Of a stretch of 64,000 bases of DNA, positions 5,644 to 43,960 are shown in pieces. The stretch is from NCBI GenBank assembly GCA_963845755.1, contig CAWJTV010000036.1, forward strand, positions 384,001-448,000, read 5' to 3'. This stretch comes from an uncultured Planctomycetota bacterium (GTDB lineage: Bacteria; Planctomycetota; Planctomycetia; Isosphaerales; Isosphaeraceae). Positions within the stretch are counted from its first letter, which is position 1; each line of letters begins with the position of its first letter. The notes beneath the pieces were generated by a model. That model did no database searches. It saw only the letters and a program-made list of their open reading frames with translations, and was not told where the DNA came from. Made by a program: the position numbers and the translations under genes.

Positions 5644-6238
5644 ATGGATCTCGATTTCCACGAGGTATTGCTGACGCCCAGCGACTTGCTGGAACATTGG
5701 TTCTGCGGGCGGTTCACGTACTTCGAGCGGCACCTGGCGCTGCCGGAGTTCCAGGAGCGGCGGGAGAAGGTCCGGCGGGGTCGAGCGCTGCACGCGGTCC
5801 GCGAGGCGACCAATCGCGCCTACCTGAGGAAACGGCTCGGCGTGGTCGAGAAGCGGATCGACGTGAGCCTGATCAGCCGCCGGCACCATCTCCGCGGGCG
5901 GCTCGACGAGGTGCTCTTCTTCGACGACGGGACGGCCGGTCCGCTGGACTACAAGTTCGCGAAGGACCCCGGCCGGATCTACACGACCCTGCGGCTCCAA
6001 TCGGCGATCTACGCGCTGCTGATCCGGGAAAACTTCCGGGTCCCGGTTCGCCGCGGGATTTCTCGTCTACACCCGCAGCCAGAACCGCGTGGTCGAGATC
6101 ACGTATCAGCCGGAGGACTTCCGGAGGATCGGCCGAGCCGTGCAAGAGATCCTCGATGTCATCCATCGAGGCAAGCTCCCACGACGGGCACCGCCCTCCC
6201 ATTGCGTCGATTGCTGCTACCGATTTATTTGCGTCTGA
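5644..6238 (+). CDS. cas4: Cas4, frameshift near 6060
   Basis: TPSDLLEHWFCGR, GRLDEV...LDYK, QSAIYA, and C-terminal CVDCCYRFIC (Fe-S cysteines). Confidence 0.9.
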
Positions 6239-6412
6239 GACCGTCTCTTCCTCAAACCAGATGCGCGACCATGATGTTACAACGCGATCTGCCATGCAGG
6301 CCAGGCGGGAAAATGCGCCGCTGAGGCCATTTCCGTCGCGATCGGTCCCTTTTTCGTGCCCGAGTACTTGCGGCCTAACTCGAGGTATATTATAACTTAG
6401 GGGACCAGAGCG
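6239..6412 (+). promoter_or_regulatory. CRISPR leader
   Basis: Non-coding gap between cas4 and the first repeat with an AT-rich box (GGTATATTATAACTTAG); degenerate repeats lie at the far end of the array. Confidence 0.7.
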
Positions 6413-15400: not shown

Positions 15401-18400
15401 ATCCACCACAACAAGGATTGAAACGAGAGGCCGAGCGCCATCTCATAGGTGGTCCCGCCGTTGACGCGACCAATCCACCACAACAAGGATTGAAACCTTG
15501 TCGCGGCCCTGCAGCCCGATCAGGAGGAACGGCAGTTGACGCGACCAATCCACCACAACAAGGATTGAAACCCGATGGCGAGCAGTCGGACATATTTGAG
15601 AGAGTCGAGTTGACGCGACCAATCCACCACAACAAGGATTGAAACGCGGCTGACGGCGGAGAGGGCTTGGGCTTGGGCTTGTTGACGCGACCAATCCACC
15701 ACAACAAGGATTGAAACCTCGGTGGCGATCGCCGCGCCGCTGCGGCTCCCGATGTTGACGCGACCAATCCACCACAACAAGGATTGAAACAACAGCGCTG
15801 CCGGGGCGTGCGTGAAGCCGTTGGCGGTTGACGCGACCAATCCACCACAACAAGGATTGAAACCGTGCGGCGCCGCTCAGCCCGCGTCTGCGCCGCTTCG
15901 CGTTGACGCGACCAATCCACCACAACAAGGATTGAAACTCGATCGCGCGGGTCGCAATGTCGGAGATCGTCTCGGTTGACGCGACCAATCCACCACAACA
16001 AGGATTGAAACGCGAGCTGCTCCGCCGTGAGCCCCTGGACTTCCTCGTTGACGCGACCAATCCACCACAACAAGGATTGAAACGGCGAGTGCTTCAGACG
16101 CGCGACCAACCGGTCCTTGGGGTTGACGCGACCAATCCACCACAACAAGGATTGAAACCCAATGTGACCGTTCTGGTGTACAGTTGCCATCAGTGTTGAC
16201 GCGACCAATCCACCACAACAAGGATTGAAACAAGAGCAACTCCGTCGCGATCTCCATGACCACGCTGAGTTGACGCGACCAATCCACCACAACAAGGATT
16301 GAAACATCATATCGTCATCATTACATCTCCCGACGATGACGAGGTTGACGCGACCAATCCACCACAACAAGGATTGAAACGGTCCATGCCATGGGTTATA
16401 CGAGTGCCCTCACGGCAGTTGACGCGACCAATCCACCACAACAAGGATTGAAACTATAACGACAATTACCATGCTGTCAATACCGGATCGTTGACGCGAC
16501 CAATCCACCACAACAAGGATTGAAACAGCTGCTCGGCGATCCCGTCGCGATCGAGCCGGGCCGGTTGACGCGACCAATCCACCACAACAAGGATTGAAAC
16601 TGGACCTCGCAGCGGACATCCGCCAGCTTGGCCAAGTTGACGCGACCAATCCACCACAACAAGGATTGAAACACCCAGGGGATCGACGCACTGATGTCGT
16701 GGAATTCCAGTTGACGCGACCAATCCACCACAACAAGGATTGAAACGAGGATCGCCCGTTCGGCCGAGGCCGGGGCCGGGAACGTTGACGCGACCAATCC
16801 ACCACAACAAGGATTGAAACCTCTGGCCCGTCCCGTTGATCGCGGCCAGGTCGACGCGTTGACGCGACCAATCCACCACAACAAGGATTGAAACATGATT
16901 CGACATAGGATCGCCCTCGAATGCGACTGCGCCGGTTGACGCGACCAATCCACCACAACAAGGATTGAAACACGAACCGCAGGGGATTATCTGACCTGTT
17001 ACGGAGACGTTGACGCGACCAATCCACCACAACAAGGATTGAAACTGCGCATGGGCCGAGGATCGCTTCGGTCCAGGAAGGGCGTTGACGCGACCAATCC
17101 ACCACAACAAGGATTGAAACGTCGCGATAGATGGAGAGAGCGTCGGACTTCGGGGGTTGACGCGACCAATCCACCACAACAAGGATTGAAACCGGTCCAG
17201 GAGCTGGTGGCCGAGGCCCTCCGCGACGTGTTGACGCGACCAATCCACCACAACAAGGATTGAAACACCGACTTCCCGGCTTCCTTGGCCTCGCGGACGA
17301 CGGTTGACGCGACCAATCCACCACAACAAGGATTGAAACGGCACATAGCCGCCATTGACCCCGATCCCGCTCTCGAGTTGACGCGACCAATCCACCACAA
17401 CAAGGATTGAAACGATCCGCCGCGCGATCGAGGAACGACATGATCCAATGTTGACGCGACCAATCCACCACAACAAGGATTGAAACGTCGCGCCGGTCAC
17501 GACGCCCACCCGCAGCCTTGACGTTGACGCGACCAATCCACCACAACAAGGATTGAAACCGGGACCTCGATGTCGTCGAGCAGCCCATCGCCGGCGTTGA
17601 CGCGACCAATCCACCACAACAAGGATTGAAACACCTCGGCCCAGAAGGTGCCGACGAGCGTCGGGGTCTGGTTGACGCGACCAATCCACCACAACAAGGA
17701 TTGAAACGCGACCACGGGGGCTTGCTGTCCGGGCAGGATCAGAGTTGACGCGACCAATCCACCACAACAAGGATTGAAACCACCGGAAGCCCATGGTTAT
17801 GAGCCACGGGTGAAGAGTTGACGCGACCAATCCACCACAACAAGGATTGAAACCCCGCGAGAGCGGCCACGATCGCGAGCGACGTTCGTGTTGACGCGAC
17901 CAATCCACCACAACAAGGATTGAAACCCAAGAGCAAGGCGGGGGCATCAAATGAGGATATCATGTTGACGCGACCAATCCACCACAACAAGGATTGAAAC
18001 ATGATTCAGGAGCAACACCGAATGTTGAACTCCCTGGTTGACGCGACCAATCCACCACAACAAGGATTGAAACTTCTTCGGATCATAGGCCGGGTCCAAG
18101 GCGGTCGGTAGTTGACGCGACCAATCCACCACAACAAGGATTGAAACGCGCTCAACATGGACGTCAAGTCGATCGTCGAGCCCGTGTTGACGCGACCAAT
18201 CCACCACAACAAGGATTGAAACACCTCGTCGGCGTCGGGCTTGGACTCCACGATCACCTTGTTGACGCGACCAATCCACCACAACAAGGATTGAAACTCG
18301 AGCGGAGACGTGGTGGGCTCGTTGTGGCCCTCCATGTTGACGCGACCAATCCACCACAACAAGGATTGAAACCGATCGATAGACTCTCGCCTGCTCGCCC

Positions 18401-19634
18401 GCGACTCGAGTTGACGCGACCAATCCACCACAACAAGGATTGAAACACGGCGACGAGTTCAGCCAGCGTCTCGACGGCCTGCCGTTGACGCGACCAATCC
18501 ACCACAACAAGGATTGAAACTAGGCGATCTGCGTCACCGCGCCGCCGAACTGGATCGTTGACGCGACCAATCCACCACAACAAGGATTGAAACCCGGATC
18601 GACACCCGGCCCGTCGCCAGGCTCATTGGTGTTGACGCGACCAATCCACCACAACAAGGATTGAAACCGGAAGTCCTCCGAGGCCTCGAGGGCCACATCG
18701 TGCTGTTGACGCGACCAATCCACCACAACAAGGATTGAAACAATCGGGCGTGTCGGGCGCCTCCCCTGCCCCGGGTCGCAGTTGACGCGACCAATCCACC
18801 ACAACAAGGATTGAAACATTGTGCTCCGCGTTGGCCAAGGTGATCTGAACTTGTTGACGCGACCAATCCACCACAACAAGGATTGAAACAAGTTGCGGTA
18901 GACCGCGGGAAGGTCTTCCGCAAATCGTTGACGCGACCAATCCACCACAACAAGGATTGAAACTTTGCCAGCGAGGTCGTCTTGCTGCCCGCGAAGCTGG
19001 TGTTGACGCGACCAATCCACCACAACAAGGATTGAAACGGTACATCAATGCGTCGTGGTTGGGCTCGATATCGACGTTGACGCGACCAATCCACCACAAC
19101 AAGGATTGAAACGCCGTGAGCCCGGCCCCGGGCTATTCGCTGGCATGAGAGTTGACGCGACCAATCCACCACAACAAGGATTGAAACCGGCAGATCCGCG
19201 GCAATCCCCAGCAGATGAGCGAGCGTTGACGCGACCAATCCACCACAACAAGGATTGAAGTTTGACTTACCCGTCCTGATTATTGGCCAGGGCTCACGCG
19301 GAGACGCGGAGACGCGGAGGGGAGGATGGCTGGATTTCTTCGCGCCTCCGCGCCTCCGCGTGACGAGTCCTCGCTGACGCGTCCAATCCACCACAACAAG
19401 GATTGAAACCGGTCCGCGGTGTAGAAAATTCCAGGTCCCCGGTATTGGGTTGACGCGACCAATCCGCCACAACAAGGATTGAAACCCATCGAGGGATCTC
19501 ACGCGGAGACGCGGAGACGCGGAGTTGACGCGACCAATCCACTGCAACAAGGATTGAAACTGTTGATCGCGGCCTGCTCGATTACGAGACACGGGGCGTT
19601 GACGCGACCAATCCACCACAACAAGGATTGAAAC
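6413..19634 (+). CRISPR. CRISPR array, roughly 180 repeats (estimated from span and ~73-bp period); repeat GTTGACGCGACCAATCCACCACAACAAGGATTGAAAC (37 bp), spacers mostly ~33-41 bp
   Basis: Directly visible. 3' ATTGAAAC handle, internal CAATCC/GGATTG stem, degenerate repeats after 19225 and a final GTTGAC stub at ~19672. Confidence 0.99.
19293..19363. repeat. REP-like hairpin inside the CRISPR trailer
   Basis: TCACGCGGAGACGCGGAGACGCGGAG ... CTTCGCGCCTCCGCGCCTCCGCGTGA: 26-nt inverted arms with 3 mismatches. Confidence 0.8.
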
Positions 19635-19838
19635 CAGAGATGAGGTGCGTTGGGAGCTTGCGGAGTCGGAGGTTGACACCGATTTCAGCCTTCCGCTGCC
19701 ATTCCGCTCACGCGCTGGCCGGATTATTGACTTGTTCGCGTATTCGATGCGAGGATGAAAGGGATTCGGTCACCTCGATTCCGAACGACTGGTCGTCTCG
19801 GCCGCTTCGTCGCTGAGCGCCTCAACCCGGAGGATTCC

Positions 19839-21298
19839 ATGCGTGCCTGGAGAATCTTCGTCGGCGCCGTTGCCTTCGCAGCCTTCTCGCTAGCCACCGT
19901 TGTCGCGTCAAGCCGTGCGGACGATCTGTTCGCCAACAACCTGGGAATCTATTACGAAAAAGTCGCGTACGACGACGGCACGTTCGGCGCGAAGTTGACT
20001 CGTGCCGCCCGAGGCCAATAGTCCAGCGGCGCAGATTGGACTGGAAGTGGGCGACGTCGTCTTCATGATGGACGACCAGAGGTTCCGAACGCCGCAAGAT
20101 GTGCTGAGTCACGTGAACAATACATCCGTGACGCTGATCGACGTCCGTACGGGCCAGGTCAAACAGGCCGTCGTCGTCCTTCCGGGAGCCGCTCCCGGTC
20201 CCGATCCGGTGGGCCCGATCCCGCCGGGTGCGGGAGATCTCTTCGCCGACAACCTGGGGATCCATTACGAGAAGGTCACGTATGGCGACGGCACGTTCGG
20301 CGCGAAGTTGACTCGTGCCGCCCGAGGCCAACACACCGGCGGCTCAGATTAGACTGGAGGCGGGCGACGTTGTCTTCATGATGGACGGCCAGAGGTTCCG
20401 CACGCCGCAAGACGTGCTGAATCACGTGAACAATACGTCCGTGACACTGATCGACGTCCGTACCGGTCAGGTGCAACAGGCCGACGTCGTCCTTCCGGGA
20501 GCCGTTCGTGGCGTCAATCCAACGGACCACGTCCAGCCGCGCCAGGGTGCATTGAAATCCGGATGGATCACTCAGCCCGATTTGAGGAGCGTCGTCAGGG
20601 AGGAGCTGCGCGGCGGACACGTCAAATACCGGCGGCCCAGTCTCGAGAATCACGGCCGTTTTCTGGACTGGAACCTCGGCGGTCCCGATCTTAATTTCTT
20701 CAATGCCAGTCCCGCGGTTTATGCTCAGTTCCAGGTCGAGATCATTCGCATGAGCCTGGTTCAGCAGCAGCAACGCAACTTCTGGGAGCCGTACCTTCAG
20801 CGCGTGGAAGGGCGGATCGCCGACCTCCTCGCGAAGGAACCGGCCGTAGGGCCCGAGCCGCGGCCCGCGCGGGAGGACGACGGGCCGGACGCGAAGGACG
20901 ATCCCGACGATGAGGAGATGGGAATGGCGCTGGGTGGTGTCGACGAAGAAGTCGAGAGAATCCTCAAGGAAGCGATCAACGCGAAGGCGAGGGCCAGTGG
21001 GCTGACTCCTCGCGAGAAGCGGCCGCCCGCCGAGGGAGGTATCAACCAGGTGACCCTCGCGACACCCAGCGGCCAGGGCCGTATCTACATCATGCCTCGA
21101 ACACCTTATTATATCCGAGCGTTCGCGCCCGTGTCTGTGAGTGATTTCAGCGCGTACGCCGCGGGGGCCACGACGGGACTGTTGAGCGGTGAGTACGTCT
21201 ACATGGTGCGCAATTCCGGAGGGGCGAGTACCCTGGCGCCTCACACGCCGATGAGCACCTTCCGCGTGGATCGCAGTGGAAGAATCCGGCTGCAATGA
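19839..21298 (+). CDS. Secreted protein with two tandem PDZ-like repeats and an unknown C-terminal region (two frameshifts)
   Basis: Signal-peptide-like MRAWRIFVGAVAFAAFSLATVVASSRA; repeated unit with SPAAQIGLEVGDVVFMMD (PDZ-like); ~313-bp internal duplication 19920-20503. Confidence 0.65.
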
Positions 21299-30818: not shown

Positions 30819-33800
30819 TCAGTTGGCACGGGCGAACGGCTCGGACGGCATGGCCAGGTCCATCATCAGGAGTCGGAAATCGGCTCGGCCGCGGAGCGGG
30901 TCGAGGGCATCCTCGATGCGGTAAGCATCGGGGCTGCGGTAGCCCCGGCCGACGGCCTTGTGCAACAGGGCCATCGCCGTCTCGGCCTCGCTCGACGCCT
31001 CGGCGGCCGACACGACCGCGCCGTCCCGGCCGGCCAAGCCCGCCAGAGCGGCGTGGGAACACGCGAAGAGAAAATGCTGCTGGCCCGTCCGCGACGGCAC
31101 GGCGTCCCACAGCTCCAGCGACCGTCGGGCGTCGGCCGCGGCCCCGGCGGGGTCGCCCAGGGCGCGGCGGGCCAGCGCACGGTTGAGGTAATTCTCTGCC
31201 AGGCCGTCGTTGTAATCCGTCGCGTGGGGGTACGCCTTGACCAGCGCCTCGAGCGCCGCGACGGCCCGCTCGACGTGATCGCGGGCCTCGTCCGGACGGC
31301 CGAGGCGGCGGAGAACGGCGGAGAGGTTGTTGTCCGTTTTCGCTGCCTCGCTGCGATAACCCGGGACCTTCGGGTTGTCGTCGGCCAGCTTCCGGTAGAT
31401 CGTCAGCGCCGCGCGGTACGCATCCTCTGCCTCCGCCGCCTTGGCCGTCTGCGAGAGCAGGACGCCGAGGTTTAGGTAGCCAACCGCCAGGCCGCGGCGG
31501 AATTCGGTGACGGCGGGGTGGTCGTCGGCCAGCTTCCGGTAGATCACCAGCGCCGTGCGATGCTCGACCTCCGCCTCCGCCGCCTTGCCCCTCTGCGACA
31601 ACAGGTTGCCCAGGAGGATGTGGCTGTCCGCCAGGCCGCGGCGGAATTCGGTGACGGCGGGGTGGTCGTCGGCCAGCTTCCGGTAGATCGCCAGCGCCGC
31701 GCGATACACGGCTTCCGCCTCCGCCGGCTTGCCCGTCTGACGCAGCAGGATGCCGAGGTTTAAGTGGCTAAGCGCCTGGCGGCTGCGGAACTCGGTGACG
31801 GCGGGGTGGTCGTCGGCCAGCGTCTGGTAGATCGCCAGCGCCGCGCGGTGCTCGGCCTCCGCCTCCGCCGGCTTGCCCGTTTGACGCAGCAGGTTGCCGA
31901 GGTTGTTGTGGCTAAGGGCCAGGCGGTGGCGGAATTCGGTGGCGGTGGGGTGGTCGTGGGCCAGCTTCTGGAGAATCGCCAGCGCCGCGCGGTACGCGAC
32001 TTCCGCCTCCGCCGGCTTGCCCGTCTGACGCAGCAGGATGCCGATGCGACCGACCGTATCCGCCAGCTCGCGACGGGCGCCGTTCGAGGACCCGGTGGTG
32101 GCGGCCAGCGCCTCCTGGTCGGACCGGGCCAGGGTGTAGGTCGACAGGGCCTCAGCGGTCTTGCCCGTCCCGAAAAGGAGTGAGCCCAGCCGTGATCGGC
32201 AGGCCGCCAGCGCGGCCCGTGCCGACGGGTCGGACCCGGTCAGCCCCGCCAGGAGCGATTCCGACCGGCGGTAGGCCGCCAGCGCATCCTCCGTCTTGCC
32301 TGTCGATTCAAGCAGGACGGCGACCGCGGTCATGCTGCGGCCGACATCGGGCATTGCCGCGGCGCCGGCCCCCGGCTCGCTCGCCAGCGACTCCCGCGCC
32401 GCCAGCACCCCACGGTGCGCCGCCAGCGCGTCCTCGGTGCGGCCGACCTTCCACGTCAGGTCGGCCAGTTCGTAGTTCGAGGCCACCAGCGCCCGCCGCG
32501 AGGCGATGTCCGTCTCCCGGCCCAGCAGCGCGCCGAGCTTGCCGTAGAATTCGGCGGCCGACTTCAGGAGGCGGTCGCGCAGCTCCTGGAACTGGTCCTG
32601 CTTGAGCAGGAAGTCCTCACTGACGCCGGTGTGGAACCTCTTGATGGCGTCGGCGGCCAGGTCGTAGCGGGCCTGCACCGCGGCCTCCGAGCGGGCCAGG
32701 TCGGCGTTGGCGGCGGCCAGGGCGGTTTTGGCCTTCGTTTCGCGGGCCAGGGCGTCGCGGAGGCTTCCGTTGGCCGAGGCCAGGTCGTTCCGGGCCTGGG
32801 TCTGCACGGCAGCCACCGCCGTGAGCCCGATCACGCCGGCGACCAGCGCCACCGCCGCCGCCGTCACGGCCGTCCGGTTCCGCCGCGCCCACCGCCGCGC
32901 CCGCCGCGAGAGCGGCTCGCGCCAGGCAGTCACCGGCTCGTCGGCCGTCCACCGCTCAACGTCGTCGGCCAGCCCCCGGCATGACGGGTAGCGGTCCTCG
33001 GGTTTCGTCGCCATCGCCTTGAGGCAGACGGCCTCCAGCGCCTTGTCGATCGACGGGTCGAGCCGTCGGGGCGGCAGGAACTCGCCCTGCTGGACCCGGC
33101 GGAGCACCTCGCCGGTCTCTCCCTCAAACGGCGGCCGGCCGGTCAGGAGGCAATACAAGGTGGCACCGAGGCTGTAGACGTCGGAGCGGGGCCCGAGGCG
33201 GTCCAACGCGCCGGCGGCCTGCTCGGGGCTCATGTAGGCGGGCGTGCCCAGGACGCTGCCGGGCAGGGTCTCGGCGCTGCCGCTGGCGGAGGACGGGGCC
33301 AGCGTCCGCTCGTCGGATTCGGTCCCCGGTCCGGCCCGGCCGACCGCCTTCGCCAGTCCCCAGTCGACCACCAGGGTCTCGCCGTGCTTGCCGACGATGA
33401 CGTTGCCCGGCTTGATGTCGCGGTGGAGGACGCCCCGGCTGTGGGCGTACTCGATCGCGTTGCAGACGTCGGTGAACCGCCTCAGCAGCTTACGACGATC
33501 CAGCGACCGGCGGCCCGGGTCGTCCTTGACGGCGCCGTCGGCGTGGAAGTGCTCGATCGCCTTCTTGAGCGAGTCGCCCTTGATGAACCGCATGGCGTAA
33601 TAGGGCCGGCCGCCGTCGTAGGTCCCCAGGCCGTAGACCGGGACGATCCCCGGGTGCTCCAGGCCGCCGGTGATCTCGGCCTCGACCAGGAACCGCTGGC
33701 GGCTGACGGGGTCGTCGGCGTGGTTGTCGAGGATCTGCTTCAGCGCCACCTCGCGGTTCAGCTCGCCGTCCAGCGCGACGAACACTGCCCCCAACCCGCC

Positions 33801-34232
33801 CCGGGCGTGGGGCCGCAGGACGCGAAACCGCTGGCCGCCGCTGGTGGCGGTGCCGACCGAGTAGGTGCAGGTGCGGTCCGGGTCGCCGCTGGAGTCGGTG
33901 TCGGATCCGACGTGGACGAGGGTCCCCTCGACGTCGGGCCCGCCGGCGGCGGCGAGGCGCGCGCGGGTGGAGCCGGTCAGCGCGAACGCGGCGAGGCTCT
34001 TCTCGGCGTCGCCCCCGTGGGCGAGTAGGTGCTCGGCGAGCAGGGCGTCGAGTAAGGCGCGGCGGGCGCCGGTGAGGGCCCCGTGTTCGACGAGCAAGTC
34101 GGCCATCGCTCGCCCCGGCGACGCCGTCCAGGCGCCGAAGGCGGCGACGAGCTGGGACTGGTTGACCATTCGGTTCTGCAGCGCCAGCAGACCGAAGAGC
34201 AGGTCGCGTGGCGCCTCATCGCATCGTGGCAT
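30819..34232 (-). CDS. Ser/Thr protein kinase with TPR-like repeats
   Basis: [37 protein letters not shown]; ~49-aa tandem repeats; start [19 protein letters not shown] chosen by comparison with the paralog at 37032. Confidence 0.92.
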
Positions 34233-34645
34233 CGGCTCGGCTCCCGGCCCCGGCGGCGGACGATCGTGCCCGGCCGCCCTCGTGGCGAACGGATCGCAGC
34301 GGGCCGGTGATAGGATAAACGAGTCAATGGACCAAGAGGAAGTCACTTCGGTGAGAGCTGCGTCCCCTCTGCCCCACCCGGTTGACGCGCCCATCAACCG
34401 CAACGGCCGATTCACACGGGGCTTGAATATCATTCGAATACACAAGGGCGAACGCAACGTCGAGAGTGAGTTCACCACGATCAACACGGTTGTTGCTCGC
34501 ATCACGCCGAGAGCCGCCGTGATCCACCTCTTCCGTAACGCCCAGAGGTTTTTCTCTAGCGACCTGATCGTCGTCAGATCGCCAAGCATTCGAAATCCCG
34601 AAGAACGTTGCCAGGCTGGTCCCAGGATTGATCGCCGAGACCTAA

Positions 34646-35554
34646 GAGCGCTCGGAAAAAATGAGTTCACTGGCCCAGGAGCCTCAAACAGATCAAGGAA
34701 CATGCTAACTTGAGGAACGCGTCTTGAATCTCGGTGAGCCGATCCAAACGGCGGCGCAGCCGGCCGAAGGAGTGCAGCCACGCGATGGTCCGCTCTACGT
34801 ACCAGCGGGACTTGCCCAAACCGCTGCCGTGCTCCGTATTGCGGGCCGCCAGCACCGGCGTGGTCCCCCGGCCGCGCAAACCCTGCCGCACCGGTTCCGA
34901 GTCGTAGCCCCGATCCCCCTGCAAGCGGTCGGGCTTCTGCCGCTTCGGCCCCGGCTTGCCGCCCACCGGCGGCATGTCGTCGAGCGTCGTGAAGACCTGG
35001 GTGATCTCGGGGACGTTGGCGGCGGTCACCGTCGCCGCCAGCGGCACGCCTTGGGCGTCGGTCATCACGTGGTGCTTGCTGCCGGATTTGCTCCGGTCCG
35101 TCGGATTCGGGCCGGTATCCTCGCCCCCTTCCGGGGCCTTGGCGAAGGAGGCGTCGATCAGCGCCCGCTCCCAGTCGATCGCGTCAGCGCCGTTGAGCTC
35201 GGCCAGCAAGACGGCGTGCAACTGGCGCCAGACACCGGCCTGCTGCCACGCCTGCAGGTAGGACCGGCAGGTCTTGCCGCAGCCGCAGCCGAGGTCGGCG
35301 GGCAAGTCGTCCCAGGCGATGCCGGTCTTGAGCACGAACAAGATGCCGGTGAGGATCTTGCGGTAGTCCAGGGGTTTGCGTCCCGGGAAGCGGAAGCGGC
35401 GCGGAGGCGGGGGTGGCAGCAAGGGCTCCAGGCGCTTCCACAGCGCATCGGAGACAAGGGGTTTCATGGTGGTCCTCCTTCGGTTCGGGAGATCACTCTC
35501 CGAAGGACTCAAGAGCAGACAGCGTGCCAGTGGATTCATTTTTTCCGAGCGCCG
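34646..35554 (-). mobile_element. IS5-family insertion sequence
   Basis: Inverted ends GCGCTCGGAAAAAATGA(G/A)T(T/C)CACTGG at ~34648 and ending 35552, enclosing a transposase. Outermost bases uncertain. Confidence 0.85.
34667..35467 (-). CDS. IS5-family DDE transposase
   Basis: MKPLVSDALWKRLEPLLP, GILFVLKTGIAWDDLP, ALIDAS, GDRGYDS, RWYVERTIAWL. Confidence 0.92.
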   Translation of the reverse strand: MKPLVSDALWKRLEPLLPPPPPRRFRFPGRKPLDYRKILTGILFVLKTGIAWDDLPADLGCGCGKTCRSYLQAWQQAGVWRQLHAVLLAELNGADAIDWERALIDASFAKAPEGGEDTGPNPTDRSKSGSKHHVMTDAQGVPLAATVTAANVPEITQVFTTLDDMPPVGGKPGPKRQKPDRLQGDRGYDSEPVRQGLRGRGTTPVLAARNTEHGSGLGKSRWYVERTIAWLHSFGRLRRRLDRLTEIQDAFLKLACSLICLRLLGQ

Positions 35555-35811
35555 AAGCGAGTACGATGGAAACGGCGATCCATCAGCCCGCAGTAGGACT
35601 GCGGGTAGCCCGGTCGGGTTGTGGCGCGGTTTTGTCGCCTCAATGCCGCATGGAGCGCCTGAATTCCCTTCTGCGGTTGGGTCAGTCGCCCGGTCTTTAG
35701 CGTCCAATTCCTCTCTGCGCTCGGACGTCGTTCGCGCGAGAATTGTGCAACTTTCACGCAGTGCGACAGGTGGTGAACGTTCGCGCCATTCCTCATCACC
35801 AGGGGACTAAA

Positions 35812-35985
35812 ATGAGCATCCCGCATTTCAACGCACAAGTCTCACTCGATCAGACGGGCCAGCGGCATTATCGAGCGGGCGCTGGTGTGTTCGTTCCGGC
35901 GAGCGTTCACCCTTCCAGCGCGACTTGCATCTCTACCTGACGACGGAACTGTGGAAACGACGCTGAATGTTCGGCCTGTTGTCGC
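35812..35985 (+). pseudogene. Cys-rich peptide precursor 1, in-frame TGA and apparently truncated
   Basis: MSIPHFNAQVSLDQTGQRHYR...TCIST-TGA-RRNCGNDAECSACC; RBS-like AGGGGA upstream; leader resembles the peptide at 36306. Confidence 0.55.
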
Positions 35986-35987
35986 TT

Positions 35988-36278
35988 CAAATCGCCGACA
36001 ACGCCGGTGGAACCGACGAACCCCGCGCGCTCAATGACCTGGCTGTGCGGAACGATCAGATTTTCGCGTTGGTCACCGAGCAATTCGGTTACAATCGCTC
36101 GCTCAGCGCGGTGGACCTCCAACCGTCTTCATTGAGAGGAATCCGCAAGATCGTCGAACTCATCGTTTCGTTCGTCCGTCGCGAGACGGACGTGATCGAC
36201 AAGTATTTCGTCCGTGTCAACGTCACTGAACCGTTTCCTTTCCTCGTCTCGAAACTCACGCCGTACTACGCCCACCAG
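35988..36278 (+). pseudogene. Cyanobactin PatG/PatA C-terminal-domain-like fragment
   Basis: IADNAGGTDEPRALNDLAVR...RKIVELIVSF..RETDVIDKYFVRVNVTEPFPFLVSKLTPYY resembles the PatG C-terminus as I recall it (EKYFVRVDVTEEFPFLVTKLSPYYDR). Confidence 0.7.
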
Positions 36279-36305
36279 GTTTGCGTGGTACAGGAGAGAC
36301 TGACC

Positions 36306-36554
36306 ATGAGACTCCCGGGATTCACTGCCTCTGTGTCGTTGAGCCAGTCCACAACTCACTACGAGGCTTCGCCGCTCATAACGCGGGCATTTGTCGCGAA
36401 GGCGACCTCCGACACGGTGCGAGCGGCTCTGTCGTCATTCGGTTCGGCGTGCAACTGCAACCCTCCTCCAGGCGGGTGCTGCCACGGCGATTCACAAGGG
36501 GACCCCTGCGTCTGCTGCCGAATCGGCAATCATGTCCGCTGTATATATATCTAG
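36306..36554 (+). CDS. 82-aa Cys-rich peptide precursor 2 (8 Cys in C-terminal core)
   Basis: RBS AGGAG; MRLPGFTASVSLSQSTTHYE...CNCNPPPGGCCHGDSQGDPCVCCRIGNHVRCIYI-stop. Confidence 0.7.
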   Translation: MRLPGFTASVSLSQSTTHYEASPLITRAFVAKATSDTVRAALSSFGSACNCNPPPGGCCHGDSQGDPCVCCRIGNHVRCIYI

Positions 36555-36581
36555 CATATTCGCTTTTCTGTTGACACTTGT

Positions 36582-36880
36582 CCTAACGCGGCCTTCGGCC
36601 GCAACCCCATCGGGATTCCCGATTCGAGATTCCGGATTCCCGAAGGGGAAGGATCCGGGAATCCGGAATCTCGAATCCGGAATTCGGAATCCCCAGAGGC
36701 GCGCACGGCGCAGGGAGCCTACGGAGGACGACTCTAACGCGGCCTTCGGCCGCAACCAAAAGTGGGATTCCCGATTCGCGATTCCGGATTCCCGAAGGGG
36801 GATGATTCGGGAATCTCGAGTCTGGAATTCGGAATCCTCCGATGCGCGGCACGGCGCAGGGATCCTACGAAGGAAGACTC
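36582..36880. repeat. Two tandem copies of a ~151-bp modular palindromic element
   Basis: Each: CTAACGCGGCCTTCGGCCGCAACC + inverted heptamer arrays (GGATTCC / GGAATCC) + GCACGGCGCAGGGA.CCTACG.AGG. Confidence 0.85.
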
Positions 36881-37031
36881 CAAGGCAAGGCCCGATCAAA
36901 CGGGGCCCGGCTGCACAAGACGAGCGGTCATGCGATAATCTTACGGATCCGGTTCGTGGCCCGGTGGGAGGACACCGACGTCGGAGTCCAGACACCCGTG
37001 GGCCTCGCCGGACGGCCGGGAGATCATTCGC

Positions 37032-40000
37032 ATGGCGCCCGTCGATCCCGAGCGCAACCTCCTCCTCGGTTTGCTCGCCTTGCAGGTCGGCCTCATCGAT
37101 CAGGGCCAACTCGTCGCCGCCTTCCAGGCCTGGACGCGCGACAAGGCGCGCCCCCTTGCCGACCACCTCATCGACCGCGGCGACCTGGACGCCGACCAGC
37201 GCGGCGTGATCGAGGCGATGGTTGTCCTGCACCTCAAGAAGCACGGTGGGAGTCCGGAGAAGAGCCTCGCCACCATCCCCGCCGGCCGATCCGCCCGCGA
37301 GGCCCTCACACTCCTCGCCGACCCCGACGTCGAGGCCACACTCGACCACCTCGGCACCGGCTCGGAGCCCACCGAGACCGACGTCGGTCCCACCTCCGAC
37401 CGCACCGCCACGCTCTCGGTCGGCTCGGCCACCTCCGACGGTCAGCGGTTCCACGTCCTGCGCCCGCATGCCAGGGGTGGCCTCGGTGTCGTCTTCGTGG
37501 CCCTCGACCGCGAGCTGAACCGCGAGGTGGCGCTGAAGCAGATCCTCGACTCCCACGCCGACGACCCCGTCAGCCGCCAGCGATTCCTGCTCGAAGCCGA
37601 GGTCACGGGCGGCCTGGAGCATCCCGGAATCGTGCCGGTCTACGGCCTGGGAACCTACGCCAGTGGCCGGCCCTATTACGCCATGCGATTCATCCGGGGT
37701 GATTCCCTCAAGGAGGCCATCGACCGCTTCCATCATGAGCAGGCTTTGAAAAGCGATACTCGGCCGACGTTCCCTCGAGCTGCGCAAGCTTCTGCGACGC
37801 TTCCTCGATGTGTGTAACGCCATCGACTACGCCCATTCGCGCGGCGTCCTCCACCGCGACATCAAGCCGGCGAACATCATCGTTGGCAAGCACGGCGAGA
37901 CCCTGATCGTCGACTGGGGACTGGCCAGGGCGCGAGGTCGGGCCGACGCCGGTACCGCGGACGAGCGGCCGCTCATGCCCAGCCCGGCCAGCGGGTCGTC
38001 CGAGACGCTGCCCGGCAGCGCACTGGGAACGCCGGCGTACATGAGCCCGGAGCAAGCCCGCGGCGACCTGGAGCGTCTGGGCCCGCGGTCAGACGTCTAT
38101 AGCCTGGGGGCGACGCTCTACTGTTTACTGACGGGAAAGCCGCCGTTCGAAGGCGACGTGAACGACGTGATCGCGGACGTGCAGCGGGGCGCGTTCCCGC
38201 CGCCCCGGTCTCTCGTCCCGTCGATCGACCGGGCGCTGGAGGCGGTTTGTCTCAAGGCGATGTCCTTGGATCCGGCGGACCGCTACGCAACCTCCAAGTC
38301 GCTCGGCGAGGACGTGGAGCGGTGGATGGCCGACGAGCCCGTGGCGGCTTATCGCGAATCCTGGACCCGGACGCTCACCCGCTGGCTGACGAGGCATCGG
38401 ACCGGAGTCACCGCGGTCGGTGCGGCCATGCTGGTGGCCCTGGCCGGTCTGGGGGCCGTACTGGGCGTGCAGGCGCGGGCCAATAGCCAGTTGATGGCCA
38501 AGAACGCCGAACTGGACGTCGGATTCCGCCGCGAAGCCGAGGTTCGCAAGGAGGCCGAGACCAACTTCAACATGGCCCTCAAGGCCGTAGACGACTACTT
38601 GACGAGCGTCAGTGAAAACACACTCTTCAAGCTCCAGGATTCCGTCGATATTCGCAGACTTCGCCAGGAGCTGCTCAATTCCGCGCTCGAGTACTACAAG
38701 GGCTTCGTCAACCAGCGGAGCCAGGATCCACTCCTCCGCCGACAACTGGCGCGCGCCTACTTTCGGGTGGGACAGATCACCCAGGAAGTCGAATCACCGA
38801 ACCAGGCGATCGAGGCTTACTCACCAGGCCCAGGCCATCTGGGAACCGCTCGTCGCGACTCGTCCCGACGACCATGAGCTTCAAGGCGACCTGGGCGCAT
38901 CGTACCTGGCCGTCGGTAAGCTGCAGGACACGGCCCCCAACCTCGATCTTGATGGGGCGACGAAGTCGCTCACGCGAGCACGTGCGATCCTGGAGCCGCT
39001 CGCGGCGGCGTACCCGCTCGAGCCGGGTTACCAGTCGAGTTTGGCCGATTGCTATTCGGAAATCGCCGCGATCCAGGCGAGGAGGGAACAGCCCGGCGAG
39101 AGCCTGGTCCTCCTCGAGAAAGCCAAAGCCATCGAGAAAGGCTTGATCAAAGGATACCCGAATAAGCATGCCTACCAAAAAAGTCTGGCGGAGATCACCA
39201 ACGTCCTCGGGTACGCATACTACAAACGGCGCAACAGCAACGAAGCGCTCGAGTCGTTTCGCGAGGTCCAGAACATCTGCCTGACCGTCTTGAAACAAGT
39301 GAAAGTCGGCCCCAAACCTCTCTGGCTCTTGAACCTGATGGCGCTGAGTCATTCCAACATCGGCTGGATTCACAAGGAGAAGGAGGAGATCGATGATGCG
39401 CTCAAGTCTTTAGAACAATCACTTGATTATCGATATGCTCTGGTCGATTCCCACCCGTCGGTCACCGAGTACAAGGCCAAGCTGGGATTGAGTTGTCGCG
39501 AGGTCGCCCAGGTCCAGCACGAAGCCCATGAGGACACCAAGGCGTTCCAGTCGATCCAACGGTCCGTAGACGTCCTCAAAGCCCTGGTTCGCGAGCAGCC
39601 CGACCAGGCGGGTTATCGCTGCGAGCTCGGCCTGAGCTGGAACTACCTCGGCGTCCTGTACGACGAGGATCGGAAGAATATCGAGGCGCTCGCCGCGTTC
39701 GAGCAAGCCGTGGCCGAACAGCAACAGGCCGTCGACAAGGCGAAGGAGGTCGACGGGTACCGAGCCTATCTCGCCAATCACCTCGACAATCTCGGCGAGC
39801 AATTCGTGGACCTCGGGCGTGTCGCCGAAGGACTGGCACGCTACCGGCGTTCCCTGCGGCTGTTCCGCGAGCTCAACGCGGCTCATCCGGGAATCCGCTA
39901 TTACTCCCTCGAGGTCTTGAAGTCGTTGATCCGGCAGGGAACGATCGAGCGCCACGATGGCGACTCGGCCGCCGCACGGAAGACGTTTACTGACGCGCGA

Positions 40001-40663
40001 ACGATCCTGGATCGCTGGTCGGCCGCCACGCCGGGAGACGCCGCGCTGCGAGTTCTGCTCGGCGCGGCGCTCGACCGAGAAGCGAACACGCTGTTCGATC
40101 AAGGACTCGCGGTAGAGGCCAAGCAACGGCTCGAACGAGCTCTGGTGATGTTGCGACCTGAAGTGAATCCCGCGACGTCCGACAAAGAGGGCAGCGAAGA
40201 ACGCCGATCACGCCGCGAGGTGCAGTACGTCCTGGGGCTCGCGCCTCGGGTCGATGAGGCGGGCGTTGAGGAACGCCGATGGCGCAGCGAGGTGCTTTGG
40301 GACCTGGCCCATGTCCTTCGCGCCCTCAAGTTGCTCGCGGATGCCGAGAAGGCCGATGGCGACCGTGTGGCCTTGTGGCAAGAGCGTCCGCCCACGGAGT
40401 TGGTCAACCTGGCCTTCAGGCAGTTGGAGAGGGCCCTCGTGATCGGCTACGGCAAGACGTCCATTTCCGATCGGGCCAGAGCCGTCCGCGACCTCGATCT
40501 CGACCAGGCCGCCGCCAATCTCCGCCTGGCAATCGCGCGGGGCTTCCGAGACCTCCGCATGATCCAGTCCCATCCCGACTCCCAAGTCCTCCTCTCACGG
40601 GAAGATCTCAAATTACCAATCATGGATATGGCCTTTCCGGCTCGGCCCTTTGGGGACCAATAG
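37032..40663 (+). CDS. Ser/Thr protein kinase with TPR-like region (frameshifts ~37765, ~38820)
   Basis: Same kinase motifs as the gene at 34232; ends ...PIMDMAFPARPFGDQ. Confidence 0.9.
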
Positions 40664-40858
40664 GCCCTTGGCTCATGGGCCGAAATCGGTAATCGCCTGT
40701 ACCAATGAGATTTGTAGGGTGGGTCTTTGTGTAGACTAGTAGGACACTTGGGTGGCCCGGGCGAGAGATCGGCCCGTGATCGTCCGGGACCGCCGCTGGT
40801 CCGCCCGAGCACTCGCCCGCCTGGCGAGGTCCCCATTCGTCCGGAGACAAGGTGACCC

Positions 40859-41801
40859 ATGATCTGTCGCAGCGAACTGAAGCGGCTCCAGGGCCAGCAG
40901 GATTACCCGTCGCTTTCCCTGCTCGCCCCCACCCACCGAACGGCTCCCGCGACCCACAAGGATCGGATCGTCGTGAAGAACCTCGCTGAGCAAGGGCTGA
41001 GGCGCCTCGAGAGCGAGTTCAAGAAGCGCGAGGTCGCGGCCCTGGTCCAGAACCTGAACCGGCTCGTCGACCACGTGGACTGGGAGCATTCACTCGATGG
41101 CCTGGCCCTGTTCGCGAGCCGGGACGTGGCAACCGCGGTTCACCTCCCGTTCCGCCCGAGGGCGAGGATTGTGATCGACGCGACGTTCGCAACCCGCGAC
41201 CTGGTCTATGCGCTCAACCGGGCCCCGTGCTACCGGGTCCTCGTGTTGACCGAGAAACCGACGCGGCTGTTCGACGCGTCGACCAACGTCCTGACCGAAT
41301 ACGCCGCCAAGCCCTTCCCGATGGTCCACAAGGGTCGCGGCGGGGCGTCCCGACTCCCGGGGGGCCAGGGGATCCAAGGATCCCAACGCGATCGTCGGCG
41401 TCCTGGCCGGAAGCCATGACGACCCGAACCCCACCGCCCTCGGCAGGCTCGTCTGGCCCATCTTCAAGTCGGGTGCGACCCTGAGGCGGACCCGGGCGCT
41501 GGCCCGACTCCACGAGGCGGTGAGCGTCAACCGCCACGCGTCAGGGATCGATCAGGTGTGGCGGGCCGCCCTCGAGAAACGCTGCCAGATCCTGCTGGTC
41601 GAGACCGACTTCGAACATCCCGCGGACCTGAGCCCTCAGGGTGATCGCCTACTCCCCTACACCGGCCGAGGGGCGGCGTCCCTGGATGACGCCGTGGACG
41701 AGGTGATCGAGAGGGTCATCGCCGCCGGCGGCGAGGTGTTCTTCTACGACCCGGGCGTCCTCGACCTCCACCAGCGGATCGCGGCCGTGCTCCGCTACTG
41801 A
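40859..41801 (+). pseudogene. Bacterial archaeo-eukaryotic release factor family (baeRF3-like) protein with apparent internal deletion
   Basis: SLSLLAPTHRTAP...DRIVVKNL, DGLALFAS, TFATRDLVYALNR..YRVLVL, C-terminal DDAVDEVIERVIAAGGEV...IAAVLRY; frame break near 41380. Confidence 0.65.
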
Positions 41802-41941
41802 GTTGACCGTGGGGCCGAGGAGATCGGAGGGCGGGAAGCGACCGCCCGAGAACCACGATGAACCCATGTTCGCGCGGGCATCACTCCGATTCGCGGGGCG
41901 TCTGTTACTGCACGCTGCCGTAAGTCGAGAAGGACCCTTTT

Positions 41942-42200
41942 CCTAACGCGGCCTTCGGCCGCAACCCAAGAGGGATTGAGGATTCCCAATTCCGGATTCC
42001 GGATTCCCAATTCCGGATTCCCAATTCCGGATTCCGGATTCCCAATTCCGAATTCCGGATTCCGGATTCCCAATTCCGAATTCCGGATTCCGGATTCCCA
42101 ATTCCGAATTCCGGATTCCGGATGAAGAGGGATTCGGGAATCGGGAATTCGGAATCAAGGATCCCCCAGATGGCGGCACGGCGCAGGGATTCTACGGAGG
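41942..42200. repeat. Third copy of the modular element, with the heptamer array expanded to ~20 units
   Basis: Same head and tail as 36582-36880; GGATTCC/CAATTCC/GAATTCC run 41980-42123. Confidence 0.85.
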
Positions 42201-42451
42201 TAGAGTCTGAACTGGCACGATTCGTGCAGATCATCGAGCGGAAGGGGTGAGCGAGGAAAGGTGCGAAGGGCCACAGGCTGCGCCCGGCTTCGACGGCCCA
42301 AGCCAGAACTTGGTATGCGAATTGCTACGAGACCGATCACCCGATATCCGGATCGGTCGGAGTACCGGCATTCAGCACCCACGCCGTGCGAGAGCGAGGT
42401 TCCATGGACGACCTCCGAGGGCTCGGCCTCATGAAAGCTAAAGGGTGATCG

Positions 42452-43960
42452 ATGGGACGGCTGCAGGACGCTGACAGTGAATACATCTCGACCGGTATCC
42501 TTGGGCTCGATCACATCCTCGGCGGCGGTTTCCTCCGCGAAGGGTTCTATCTCCTCCAAGGAGATCCGGGCTCCGGCAAGACGACCCTTGCGCTCCAGTA
42601 CCTTATGTCGTGCGCCCGCAATGGCGAGCGGGGCCTCTACATCACCCTGACCGAGACCCGGAGCGATATCGAACGCGCCTGTCGCTCGCACGGCTGGACC
42701 CTCGACGCCATCGAAGTCAGCGACATGACGCGGTCCGACTTCAACGTTAGCGGCGAGTCCCATTACGTCGTCTTCCACCCGTCCGAGGTCGAGCTGGGCG
42801 AGACGACGCGGCAGATCATCGCCGAGGTCGAACGCATCAAGCCCAGGCACGTCGTCTTCGACGGGCTCTCGGAATTGCGGCTCCTGGCCGCCGACTCGTT
42901 GCGCTATCGCCGTCAGCTCCTCTCCCTCAAGCATTACTTCGAAGAGCAGAAGATCACGGTGCTGATGCTCGACGACCGGACGAACCCCCTGGGGCAGATC
43001 CAGCCCGAGAGCCTCGTCGGTGGCAACATCGTCATGGAGAAGTATCTGCCCGGCTACGGCGGGGCCAGGCGGCGGCTGAATGTGACGAAGGTCCGCGGGG
43101 CCGACTTCCAGGATGGCTACCACGACTACGAGATCGTCCAGGGTGGGGTGGTGGTCCATCCGCGGCTCGTCGCGGCCGAGCACCACGAACGGTTCGAGCC
43201 GGAGATGTTCTCGAGCGGCATCGCGAATCTCGATCTCTTGACGCAAGGTGGCCTCCAGGCAGGCACGACGACGTTAGTCCTCGGGCCCGCGGGGGTCGGC
43301 AAGTCCACCATCGCCATGCAGTTCGTCGCCAAGGCCCTGGCCGCGGGGCGAAAGGCGGCGGTCTTCACCTTCGACGAGGTCATCGACACGCTCTTCTCCC
43401 GCTCGGAGAAGCTCTGCTCCAACGGTATCCGGCAATTCCTGGCGGACGGGCAGCTCCACGCCCAGCAGGTGGACCCGGCCGAGCTCTCCCCCGGCGCGTT
43501 CGCCGACAAGGTGACGCGGGTCGTCGCGGGCGGGGCGAAGCTCATCGTCATCGATAGCCTGAACGGATACATGTCGGCCATGCCCGAGGAGCGGTTTCTC
43601 ACGACGCACCTCCACGAGCTCTTCGCCTATCTGAACCAGCAGGGGATCGTGACCATCGTCGTCGTGGCCCAGCATGGCCTCCTCATGGCGAATTCGGCCG
43701 AGCTCGATGTGAGCTATCTCGCCGATACCGTGTTCCTCCTCCGCTACTTCGAGGTCGACGCCCAGATCCGCCAGGCGATCAGCGTCTTCAAGAAGCGGAC
43801 CGGCTCGCACGAGCGGTCGCTCCGCGAGCTGATGATCCGGAACGATGGCATCCAGGTGGGCGAGCCCCTGAAGGGCTTCCGGGGCATCATGACCGGCGTG
43901 CCCCAGTACGAAGGGGAGATCCGCCCGCTCCGAGAGGAGGGGAGGACGGATGCTGTCTAA
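42452..43960 (+). CDS. KaiC-like double RecA-fold ATPase
   Basis: Two Walker A motifs (GDPGSGKT, GPAGVGKS), VFDGLSE, VIDSLNG, SYLADTV. Confidence 0.9.
   Translation: MGRLQDADSEYISTGILGLDHILGGGFLREGFYLLQGDPGSGKTTLALQYLMSCARNGERGLYITLTETRSDIERACRSHGWTLDAIEVSDMTRSDFNVSGESHYVVFHPSEVELGETTRQIIAEVERIKPRHVVFDGLSELRLLAADSLRYRRQLLSLKHYFEEQKITVLMLDDRTNPLGQIQPESLVGGNIVMEKYLPGYGGARRRLNVTKVRGADFQDGYHDYEIVQGGVVVHPRLVAAEHHERFEPEMFSSGIANLDLLTQGGLQAGTTTLVLGPAGVGKSTIAMQFVAKALAAGRKAAVFTFDEVIDTLFSRSEKLCSNGIRQFLADGQLHAQQVDPAELSPGAFADKVTRVVAGGAKLIVIDSLNGYMSAMPEERFLTTHLHELFAYLNQQGIVTIVVVAQHGLLMANSAELDVSYLADTVFLLRYFEVDAQIRQAISVFKKRTGSHERSLRELMIRNDGIQVGEPLKGFRGIMTGVPQYEGEIRPLREEGRTDAV

Follow-up and report, generated by a model that had tools for sequence, protein, structure and literature searches.

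Passages of PMC4259220 describe PatG-DUF, a domain found in cyanobactin pathways and conserved there, as a novel fold whose function is unknown. According to the same passages, the domain was crystallized with a zinc ion (4uvq) whose ligands are poorly conserved, NMR work by Mann et al. shows that it does not bind PatE, its own precursor, and an aggregation artefact is described for its binding studies. The lack of PatE binding weakens a simple role for the domain as a leader receptor. In passages of PMC12639078 the DUF of PatA and PatG is still termed a domain of unknown function, and these passages, together with some of PMC4663559, place the cleavage made by A-proteases between leader and core.

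Here we analyze a locus on contig C36 of a 14.3-Mb planctomycete genome (49 contigs), within a stretch of 64,000 nucleotides that we call the window. The original prediction, made from the letters of this stretch, saw an eroded locus in which a PatG C-terminal-like domain lies between two Cys-rich peptides that share a leader. We find that the locus is very probably the decayed remnant of a gene cassette, fuller copies of which are present elsewhere in the same genome.

Results

Layout of the Locus

The features of the locus are as follows, in window positions.

34648..35552, − strand: IS5-family insertion element (PF13340 and PF01609), with 27-nt terminal inverted repeats at 34648-34674 and 35526-35552
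35801..35806, + strand: RBS-like AGGGGA before peptide 1, a putative function suggested by its sequence
35812..35940, + strand: peptide 1, with leader end SVHPS and a core cut by a TGA, likely a pseudogene (leader HMM, translation)
35938..35940, + strand: TGA at the second-Cys position of a CxxxCxxxC pattern, a presumed nonsense change (in-frame Cys beyond)
35941..35987, + strand: remaining Cys-rich core of peptide 1, up to the presumed deletion junction (translation, DNA likeness of the paralogs)
35988..36275, + strand: C-terminal remnant of a stand-alone PatG-DUF gene, approximately residues 220-315 of 316 (PF18065, A1 profile)
36276..36278, + strand: CAG at the usual site of the DUF stop codon (comparison with 72 other DUFs)
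36292..36296, + strand: RBS-like AGGAG before peptide 2 (sequence, PYY-to-leader spacing)
36306..36554, + strand: peptide 2, an intact 82-aa precursor with a leader of ~41 aa ending TVRAA and an 8-Cys core (leader HMM)
35967..36554, + strand: chimeric 195-aa ORF, DUF remnant plus peptide 2, as called by gene callers

Both small genes begin where they had been predicted. The first starts MSIPHFNAQVSL at 35812, behind the purine-rich site AGGGGA, and the second starts MRLPGFTASVSL at 36306, behind the purine-rich AGGAG at 36292-36296. The HY that marks the shared leader falls at residues 19-20 or 18-19 in both peptides, and the intact gene, peptide 2, has the eight Cys ascribed to it in its 82 aa, an even number like that of the wider family described below. 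Scored with a leader HMM trained on 98 peptides from metagenomes, with the window genes held out, peptide 1 reaches 26.4 bits and peptide 2 reaches 33.9 bits; both are among only eight leader matches at E ≤ 0.002 in 246,868 six-frame segments of the genome, the next match having E 0.76. A word search found no homologue of peptide 2, and its Atlas look-alikes were all under 0.9. The leader of peptide 2 ends in VRAA rather than in VxP[QAS], and similar endings occur in L018 and P0139.

The IS5-family element stands 260 nt upstream of peptide 1 and belongs to the context of the locus, outside the cassette. Because 18 further full-length copies at ≥99% are found across the genome, it has probably been active recently, and it is a candidate cause of the gene loss described below. 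Several other observations concern the surroundings. Directly after peptide 2, at 36583-36886, lie two tandem copies of a palindromic repeat unit of ~150 nt that is also present at ~41795-42234; it has 478 matching pieces in the genome (blastn, E ≤ 1e-8), is REP- or MITE-like, and has no Rfam match. No Rfam family matched anywhere within 34000-43000. Two related Ser/Thr kinase-TPR genes diverge around the locus, at 30819-34327 (−) and 37032-40663 (+), and the second is broken across three frames in the assembly. These genes, and the ECF-type genes nearby, have a planctomycete-like appearance. Farther away, positions 6000-20000 of the window form a 14-kb region with strong AT skew (0.16-0.31), reduced GC, and no long + strand ORF, perhaps a frameshifted gene for a repetitive surface protein.

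The Leader-Peptide Family and Its Linkage to the DUF

The leader has the consensus M-x-M-P-G-F-T-A-E-A-S-L, followed by Tyr, a variable spacer, and V-x-P. The motif [VILA]xP[QAS] stands near residue 37 in 78 of the 98 leaders, compared with a shuffle mean of 12.4 and maximum of 23, and it is present in 136 of 150 independent representatives. The cores beyond it are hypervariable in length, spacing, and sequence and contain 2 to 26 Cys (none in 2 of the 78). The Cys count after the motif is even in 77/78 peptides of the metagenome set and in 119/136 independent representatives; under one common rule, even counts were found in 96/98 family peptides and in 2545/3732 control ORFs of the genome. 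In crude tests for export signals, a Sec-like 9-residue hydropathy of at least 2.0 was seen in only 3 of the 98 leaders and a twin-arginine in none, and a double-glycine-like motif occurs in one. The leader family matched no Pfam or NCBIfam model in the scans run, nor did any cyanobactin model of either collection match the peptides or the small CxxC protein introduced below. The leader profile matches 6,137 protein clusters at 50% identity, a figure obtained with the window peptides included in the profile, in contrast to the 98-peptide HMM, which excluded them. Large Cys-repeat proteins with 330-530 aa (L056:6577-8178, L093:2716, L085:4634, L004:7175-8215) begin with this leader too, which so serves more than short peptides; one of these large proteins matches NF041328 (MXAN_6577-like) above the cut-off.

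The original prediction expected this leader to be linked to PatG-like genes in other genomes, and metagenome, phylum, and Streptomyces screens all bear this out. The complete DUF encoded on contig C14 of the same genome has 7,576 relatives of 173-553 aa among 8,000 candidates scored; the DUF alignment comprises 110 of the 120 relatives listed. Our metagenome set consists of the best 80 of 490 confirmed DUF loci, is biased toward closeness to the C14 copy, and holds near-duplicates (e.g., L054/L062 and L087/L089). Leader peptides are present at 69 of these 80 loci, and 7 of the 11 loci that lack one have <220 nt of downstream sequence. At the 37 loci with at least 1.5 kb of upstream sequence, an S8 protease gene was found in 35 and a gene for a small CxxC protein in 32. 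Among 400 genomes of the phylum, the DUF occurs in three, with leader genes adjoining it in each. Strong leader matches are confined to these three and to G282, which has no DUF match; all four genomes belong to one family and so are not independent. Five further genomes of the 400 have weak leader matches (E 0.002-0.009). The genus to which a Streptomyces record belongs was represented by 301 genomes, of which 16 have the DUF and 6 have the leader, which adjoins the DUF in 5. With the local HMM, 7 of 15 Streptomyces DUF loci have a leader within 1.5 kb, and pooling both searches raises this to 9 of 15. The linkage of DUF and leader is strong but not universal. The original prediction was staked on this linkage and on a PatG_C match (see below), and both were found.

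Hosts among the matches include Streptomyces, Ignavibacteria, Methylobacter, Desulfobaccales, Gemmataceae, and the archaeon Methanoperedens. No DUF relatives were found in viral contigs, and a scan of genome contigs with a single protein returned four loci only. A tally of neighboring genes, which the original prediction had proposed, covered 88 of 107 candidate ORFs of at least 150 aa, the 19 omitted mostly overlying peptide genes. In these 88 neighboring ORFs, transporters, radical SAM enzymes, YcaO proteins, and oxidases are not recurrent.

Fuller Cassettes in the Same Genome

A tblastn and motif scan of the genome contigs located the DUF and the leader outside C36. On contig C31, genes for an S8 protease, a CxxC protein of 66 aa, a complete DUF, and one leader peptide follow one another, with all frames open. 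On contig C14, an S8 gene with a frameshift in the assembly is followed by a complete DUF gene and three leader peptides, and contig C33 carries a lone leader peptide. In the C14 and C31 cassettes, as in the metagenome loci, the S8 and the DUF are separate genes; each of the two cassettes has one S8, and neither contains a radical SAM enzyme. These two fuller copies lay outside the view of the original prediction, which rightly coupled the PatG-like domain to the leader and missed two core genes of the system, the PatA-like S8 and the small CxxC protein.

The proteins of the cassette point toward cyanobactin proteases. The only PDB matches of the C31 S8 at E ≤ 1e-15 are the cyanobactin N-terminal protease entries 4h6v, 3zxx, 3zxy, and 4h6w, with which its D, H, S triad is aligned; against TIGR03895 it scores 115 bits, below the full-length cut-off of 421. 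The DUF profile matches the PatG-DUF structure 4uvq at E 1.8e-5, and an AlphaFold model of the DUF matches the same structure at E 2.8e-14 (TM 0.66/0.78). The N-terminal arm of the DUF is disordered, and in 67 of 110 sequences it contains a VxP[QAS] motif with CxC or CxxC behind it, against a shuffle mean of 0.7, although these sequences are related; the linkers of fused S8-DUF genes contain words similar to this motif. The word LPG[FW] occurs in 38 of 39 CxxC proteins. An uncontrolled co-fold that paired a leader (alignment A2) with residues 55-316 of the C14 DUF (alignment A1) scored 0.23 against a mark of 0.32, which counts neither for nor against an interaction.

Some further loci deserve mention in their own right. 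In the ORF L043:513-1556, a natural leader-DUF combination, the usual DUF start is preceded at a distance of 40 codons by an in-frame leader-like stretch; AlphaFold2 gives the first 88 residues of the ORF pLDDT <50, an uninformative result, as the leader-like stretch has no alignment depth. At C38:57592-59579 (L011), a locus of a different kind, a PatA-like S8 is fused to the DUF, as in cyanobactin pathways; this fusion and its relatives L008, L009, and L010 belong to non-cyanobacterial genomes. In one CxxC protein (L002:9917-10117) the GLGD...PCxxC part matches phrog_32048 (E 5.6e-6), and the protein resembles Atlas clusters with phage members (0.92). Genes for an FG-GAP/ASPIC-UnbV protein and a membrane protein diverge from the C14 cassette at C14:45121-48107 (L001:5122-8108); none of the other cassettes scanned has this pair beside it.

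Signs of Decay in the Window

The PatG C-terminal-like domain of the original prediction is confirmed by an HMM search, in which 35988-36275 matches PF18065 (PatG_C) at E 7.5e-18, with 65.1 bits against a cut-off of 25.9, over profile positions 19-115 of 115. The ~97 aa taken for the domain are PatG_C as claimed, although they represent only the last ~96 residues of a protein of ~315 aa, fitting positions 220-315 of the A1 profile, and PatG_D is missing. Full-length relatives carry both PatG_D (PF18047) and PatG_C, whereas the window has only PatG_C positions 19-115; the C14 and C31 paralogs have both domains, ~315 aa, and a stop of their own, and the remnant does not. None of the four window sequences compared with NCBIfam matched. 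No sequence of the S8, the CxxC protein, or PatG_D is left in the window. A possible S8 trace at 35630-35752 (tblastn, E 1.2) was rejected, being unsupported by the S8 HMM.

DNA likeness to both DUF paralogs starts only at 35988, directly after the CCRF of peptide 1, and this abrupt beginning points to a deletion. At the other end of the remnant, a CAG had been noted where the stop codon is expected. It occupies 36276-36278, two codons past PYY, and leads the ORF caller to report a single ORF of 195 aa. Among other DUF genes, 69/72 stop two codons after PYY, 3/72 stop after four, and none is fused to a peptide. At 40 of 62 other loci the spacing from PYY to the leader is 34-61 nt, a range that includes the 42 nt of the window.

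Of 52 conserved columns, the remnant breaks 15; in 69 close DUFs, a set picked because it resembles the C14 copy, the median is 3 and the highest value is 9. For the more distant Streptomyces DUFs, of which five loci out of 15 were scored, the counts are 4, 6, 6, 12, and 18 columns, and thus the 15 broken columns alone are not proof of decay. The closest full-length database relatives break 5-10 columns, and a partial relative breaks 4. The end branch of the remnant is 0.81 against a median of 0.089, and its pN is 0.28 against 0.11-0.20, with pS in range. In a tree of the 96-residue fragment, the window copy grouped with neither paralog.

In peptide 1, the TGA at 35938-35940 ends the gene after 42 aa with one Cys, and four more Cys follow in frame. 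The CxxxCxxxC pattern that it interrupts occurs in 15 of 112 family peptides. The relic state that had been proposed is borne out by the peptide 1 stop, the presumed deletion junction, the lost DUF stop, the absence of any remaining protease, and, with the caveat given above, the eroded DUF columns.

A second assembly bears on these lesions. Its protein P0121 has the same truncation and the same read-through of the CAG into a fusion, and it comes from a contig of 107,998 nt, whereas the window lies on one of 532,286 nt. Compared at the protein level only, the two differ by four amino acids, all in the 81 DUF residues and three of them toward the consensus; in the 94 residues of linker and peptide 2 there is no difference (Fisher p = 0.044), and the protein sequence of peptide 2 is identical. 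A frame change near 36020-36031 places the N-terminus of P0121 in another frame; either an additional lesion or a sequencing error could account for it. The P0121 variant at 36159 is also seen in a short-read piece.

A history that would account for this arrangement begins with peptide 1, the DUF gene, and peptide 2 side by side. The end of peptide 1, together with two thirds of the DUF gene, would then have been lost in a deletion of at least 660 nt, after which the DUF remnant would have drifted and lost its stop. Peptide 1 would also have acquired its nonsense codon, and the sequence of all these steps is tentative.

Discussion

We favor, as a reasonably probable reading, that the locus is the relic of an S8/CxxC/PatG-DUF/leader cassette and that peptide 2 is cleaved in trans to release a mini-protein with a predicted four disulfides. 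The PatA-like S8 would cut after [VI]xP[QAS] at the end of the leader, and this cleavage would free a disulfide-bonded core. In the case of peptide 2, the S8 would be supplied by another cassette in the genome, that of C31, and the released core would hold four disulfide bonds. The site that PatA cleaves in cyanobactin precursors is a five-residue word ending in A/P-S, and its analogy to [VI]xP[QAS] offers a lead. Since the N-terminal arm of the DUF, itself disordered, contains the same motif with CxC or CxxC, the S8 probably trims the DUF there as well. The DUF itself is most likely a partner or scaffold of the protease, and the small CxxC protein, in which the LPGF word of the leader recurs, may be a leader mimic or a redox helper. 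The original prediction had PatG-like domains "serve" the leader; what links the two is their genomic association, which may reflect a physical relation. Against the scheme, the cores would have to reach an oxidizing compartment, and yet no transporter or oxidase recurs among the 88 neighboring ORFs and the leaders are neither Sec- nor Tat-like.

Family and mechanism could be as proposed and the whole locus nonetheless dead, peptide 2 included, so that no product is made here. All elements other than peptide 2 are broken, an IS5 copy lies close upstream, no sigma-70-like promoter match was found upstream of the peptides (a weak test), and the VRAA at the end of the peptide 2 leader departs from VxP[QAS]. 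We nevertheless consider a dead peptide 2 unlikely, though far from negligible, given that the gene retains an RBS-like sequence, a full leader, eight Cys, and a stop, that it is unchanged between two assemblies that differ at four residues of the DUF remnant, and that the lone leader peptide on C33 provides another such case.

More doubtful still is the proposal that the cores are cytoplasmic metal-binding peptides rather than exported disulfide mini-proteins and that the cassette acts in metal handling. Paired Cys for metal binding would likewise give even Cys counts. No export gene recurs among the 88 neighbors and the leaders lack signal-peptide features, CxxC or CxC motifs are present in the partner proteins, and a zinc ion is reported for the 4uvq crystal in passages of PMC4259220, which also describe its ligands as poorly conserved. 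The cores, for their part, are hypervariable and range from 2 to 26 Cys, yet their counts are nearly always even, and long members match NF041328, the MXAN_6577-like Cys-rich family. Hypervariable cores with even Cys numbers are a better fit to disulfide-rich proteins.

The chimeric ORF at 35967-36554 is best read as a by-product of decay. That it encodes a functional new protein, a 195-aa fusion of PatG_C and peptide, is very improbable, even though the read-through was found in two assemblies. Its ATG at 35967 sits within the core of peptide 1, the DUF part lacks PatG_D and most of the helix at 205-222 of the predicted fold, and none of 72 other DUF ends is fused. The protein cluster of the chimeric ORF has two members only, and among seven matches just one other protein spans both the DUF part and the peptide part, with its N-terminus in another frame.

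We give hardly any credence to the idea that long-read assembly errors produced the lesions and that the gene set of the organism is intact here. The C14 S8 is indeed frameshifted in this assembly, and no read piece from four DNA runs, all of one study and sampled in small shares, bridges the junction at 35985-35988 or the position 36276. P0121, on a different contig, shows the same truncation and read-through, however, and the one short-read contig piece that covers the TGA at 35938-35940 has no listed difference (depth 2). Finally, there is next to no chance that this TGA is decoded as selenocysteine: it falls at a Cys position, selA and tRNA-SeC are present in the genome, and a hairpin is possible downstream, but a TGA with a Cys-rich continuation occurs in 0/122 other family peptides, read-through would enter the DUF remnant out of frame once 16 codons are passed, no native selenoprotein gene or comparator SECIS was found for comparison, and the loop of the hairpin starts with AU, unlike the rule for bacterial SECIS elements.

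Returning to the preferred reading of a relic whose peptide 2 is matured in trans, we can ask what the cassette means more broadly. It is quite possible, if not quite probable, that it represents a new class of ribosomal peptide pathway, bacterial and archaeal, that yields thousands of disulfide-rich mini-proteins, with a leader that is not of the Sec, Tat, or double-glycine type, a conserved core made up solely of the PatA-like protease, a CxxC leader mimic, and the PatG-DUF, the DUF as the missing processing or export factor, and maturation in trans. If so, the function of the DUF in cyanobactin pathways could be read from a minimal system, and one working cassette could serve precursors scattered across a genome. 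Since the DUF is a separate gene in a four-part cassette without tailoring enzymes, its role can be tested by omission in a small reconstitution. The precursor family of 6,137 clusters is also a likely untapped source of disulfide-rich scaffolds. The locus itself is a poor experimental subject, and its value is as a pointer to the system. It hints that lone precursors can outlast their own cassette, and it warns that gene callers turn such relics into false fusion proteins.

Relation to Known Systems

The locus is very probably a decayed member of a large and apparently undescribed peptide-processing cassette. We found no description of the cassette in mainly open articles, screened by title and the beginning of the abstract, and a genome-mining supplement could list such loci; the passages available from PMC4663559, PMC12639078, and PMC4603692 make no mention of it. 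Database names can mislead in this respect: the homologue P0082 is named "cyanobactin maturation protease PatG ...", whereas the stand-alone relatives have no protease domain.

Other families share parts of the design. Double-glycine bacteriocins and other exported disulfide peptides have a conserved leader, a variable Cys-containing core, and precursors in tandem. The cassette precursors resemble these in all three respects, but no C39 peptidase or ABC transporter was found among the 88 cassette neighbors, and the protease is an S8. Sactipeptides and ranthipeptides are radical-SAM RiPPs with Cys-rich precursors; the cassette precursors likewise are Cys-rich and have a conserved leader, but a radical SAM enzyme is encoded by 0/88 of the neighbors.

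The closest comparison is with cyanobactin pathways. Both have a PatA-like S8 with a catalytic triad (in the cassette, that of C31), a DUF of the same fold as PatG-DUF, and several precursors whose leader is conserved and whose cores are hypervariable. In cyanobactin pathways, however, the leader protease PatA/PagA and the macrocyclase PatG each bear the DUF at the C-terminus, whereas in the cassette S8 and DUF are separate. The cassette has one protease, which best matches the PatA type; G-type macrocyclase, heterocyclase, and prenyltransferase are lacking among its 88 neighbors; and it has the CxxC protein in addition. Its leader is unrelated to that of PatE, and the Pfam and NCBIfam cyanobactin models revealed no PatE-type precursor and no B and C genes, as described in passages of PMC4663559, among the peptides and the CxxC protein. 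Whereas cyanobactin cores are short and lie between recognition sites, those of the cassette are long and contain even numbers of Cys. Judged by its gene content, the cassette thus resembles the first step of a cyanobactin pathway, yet it is not a cyanobactin pathway.
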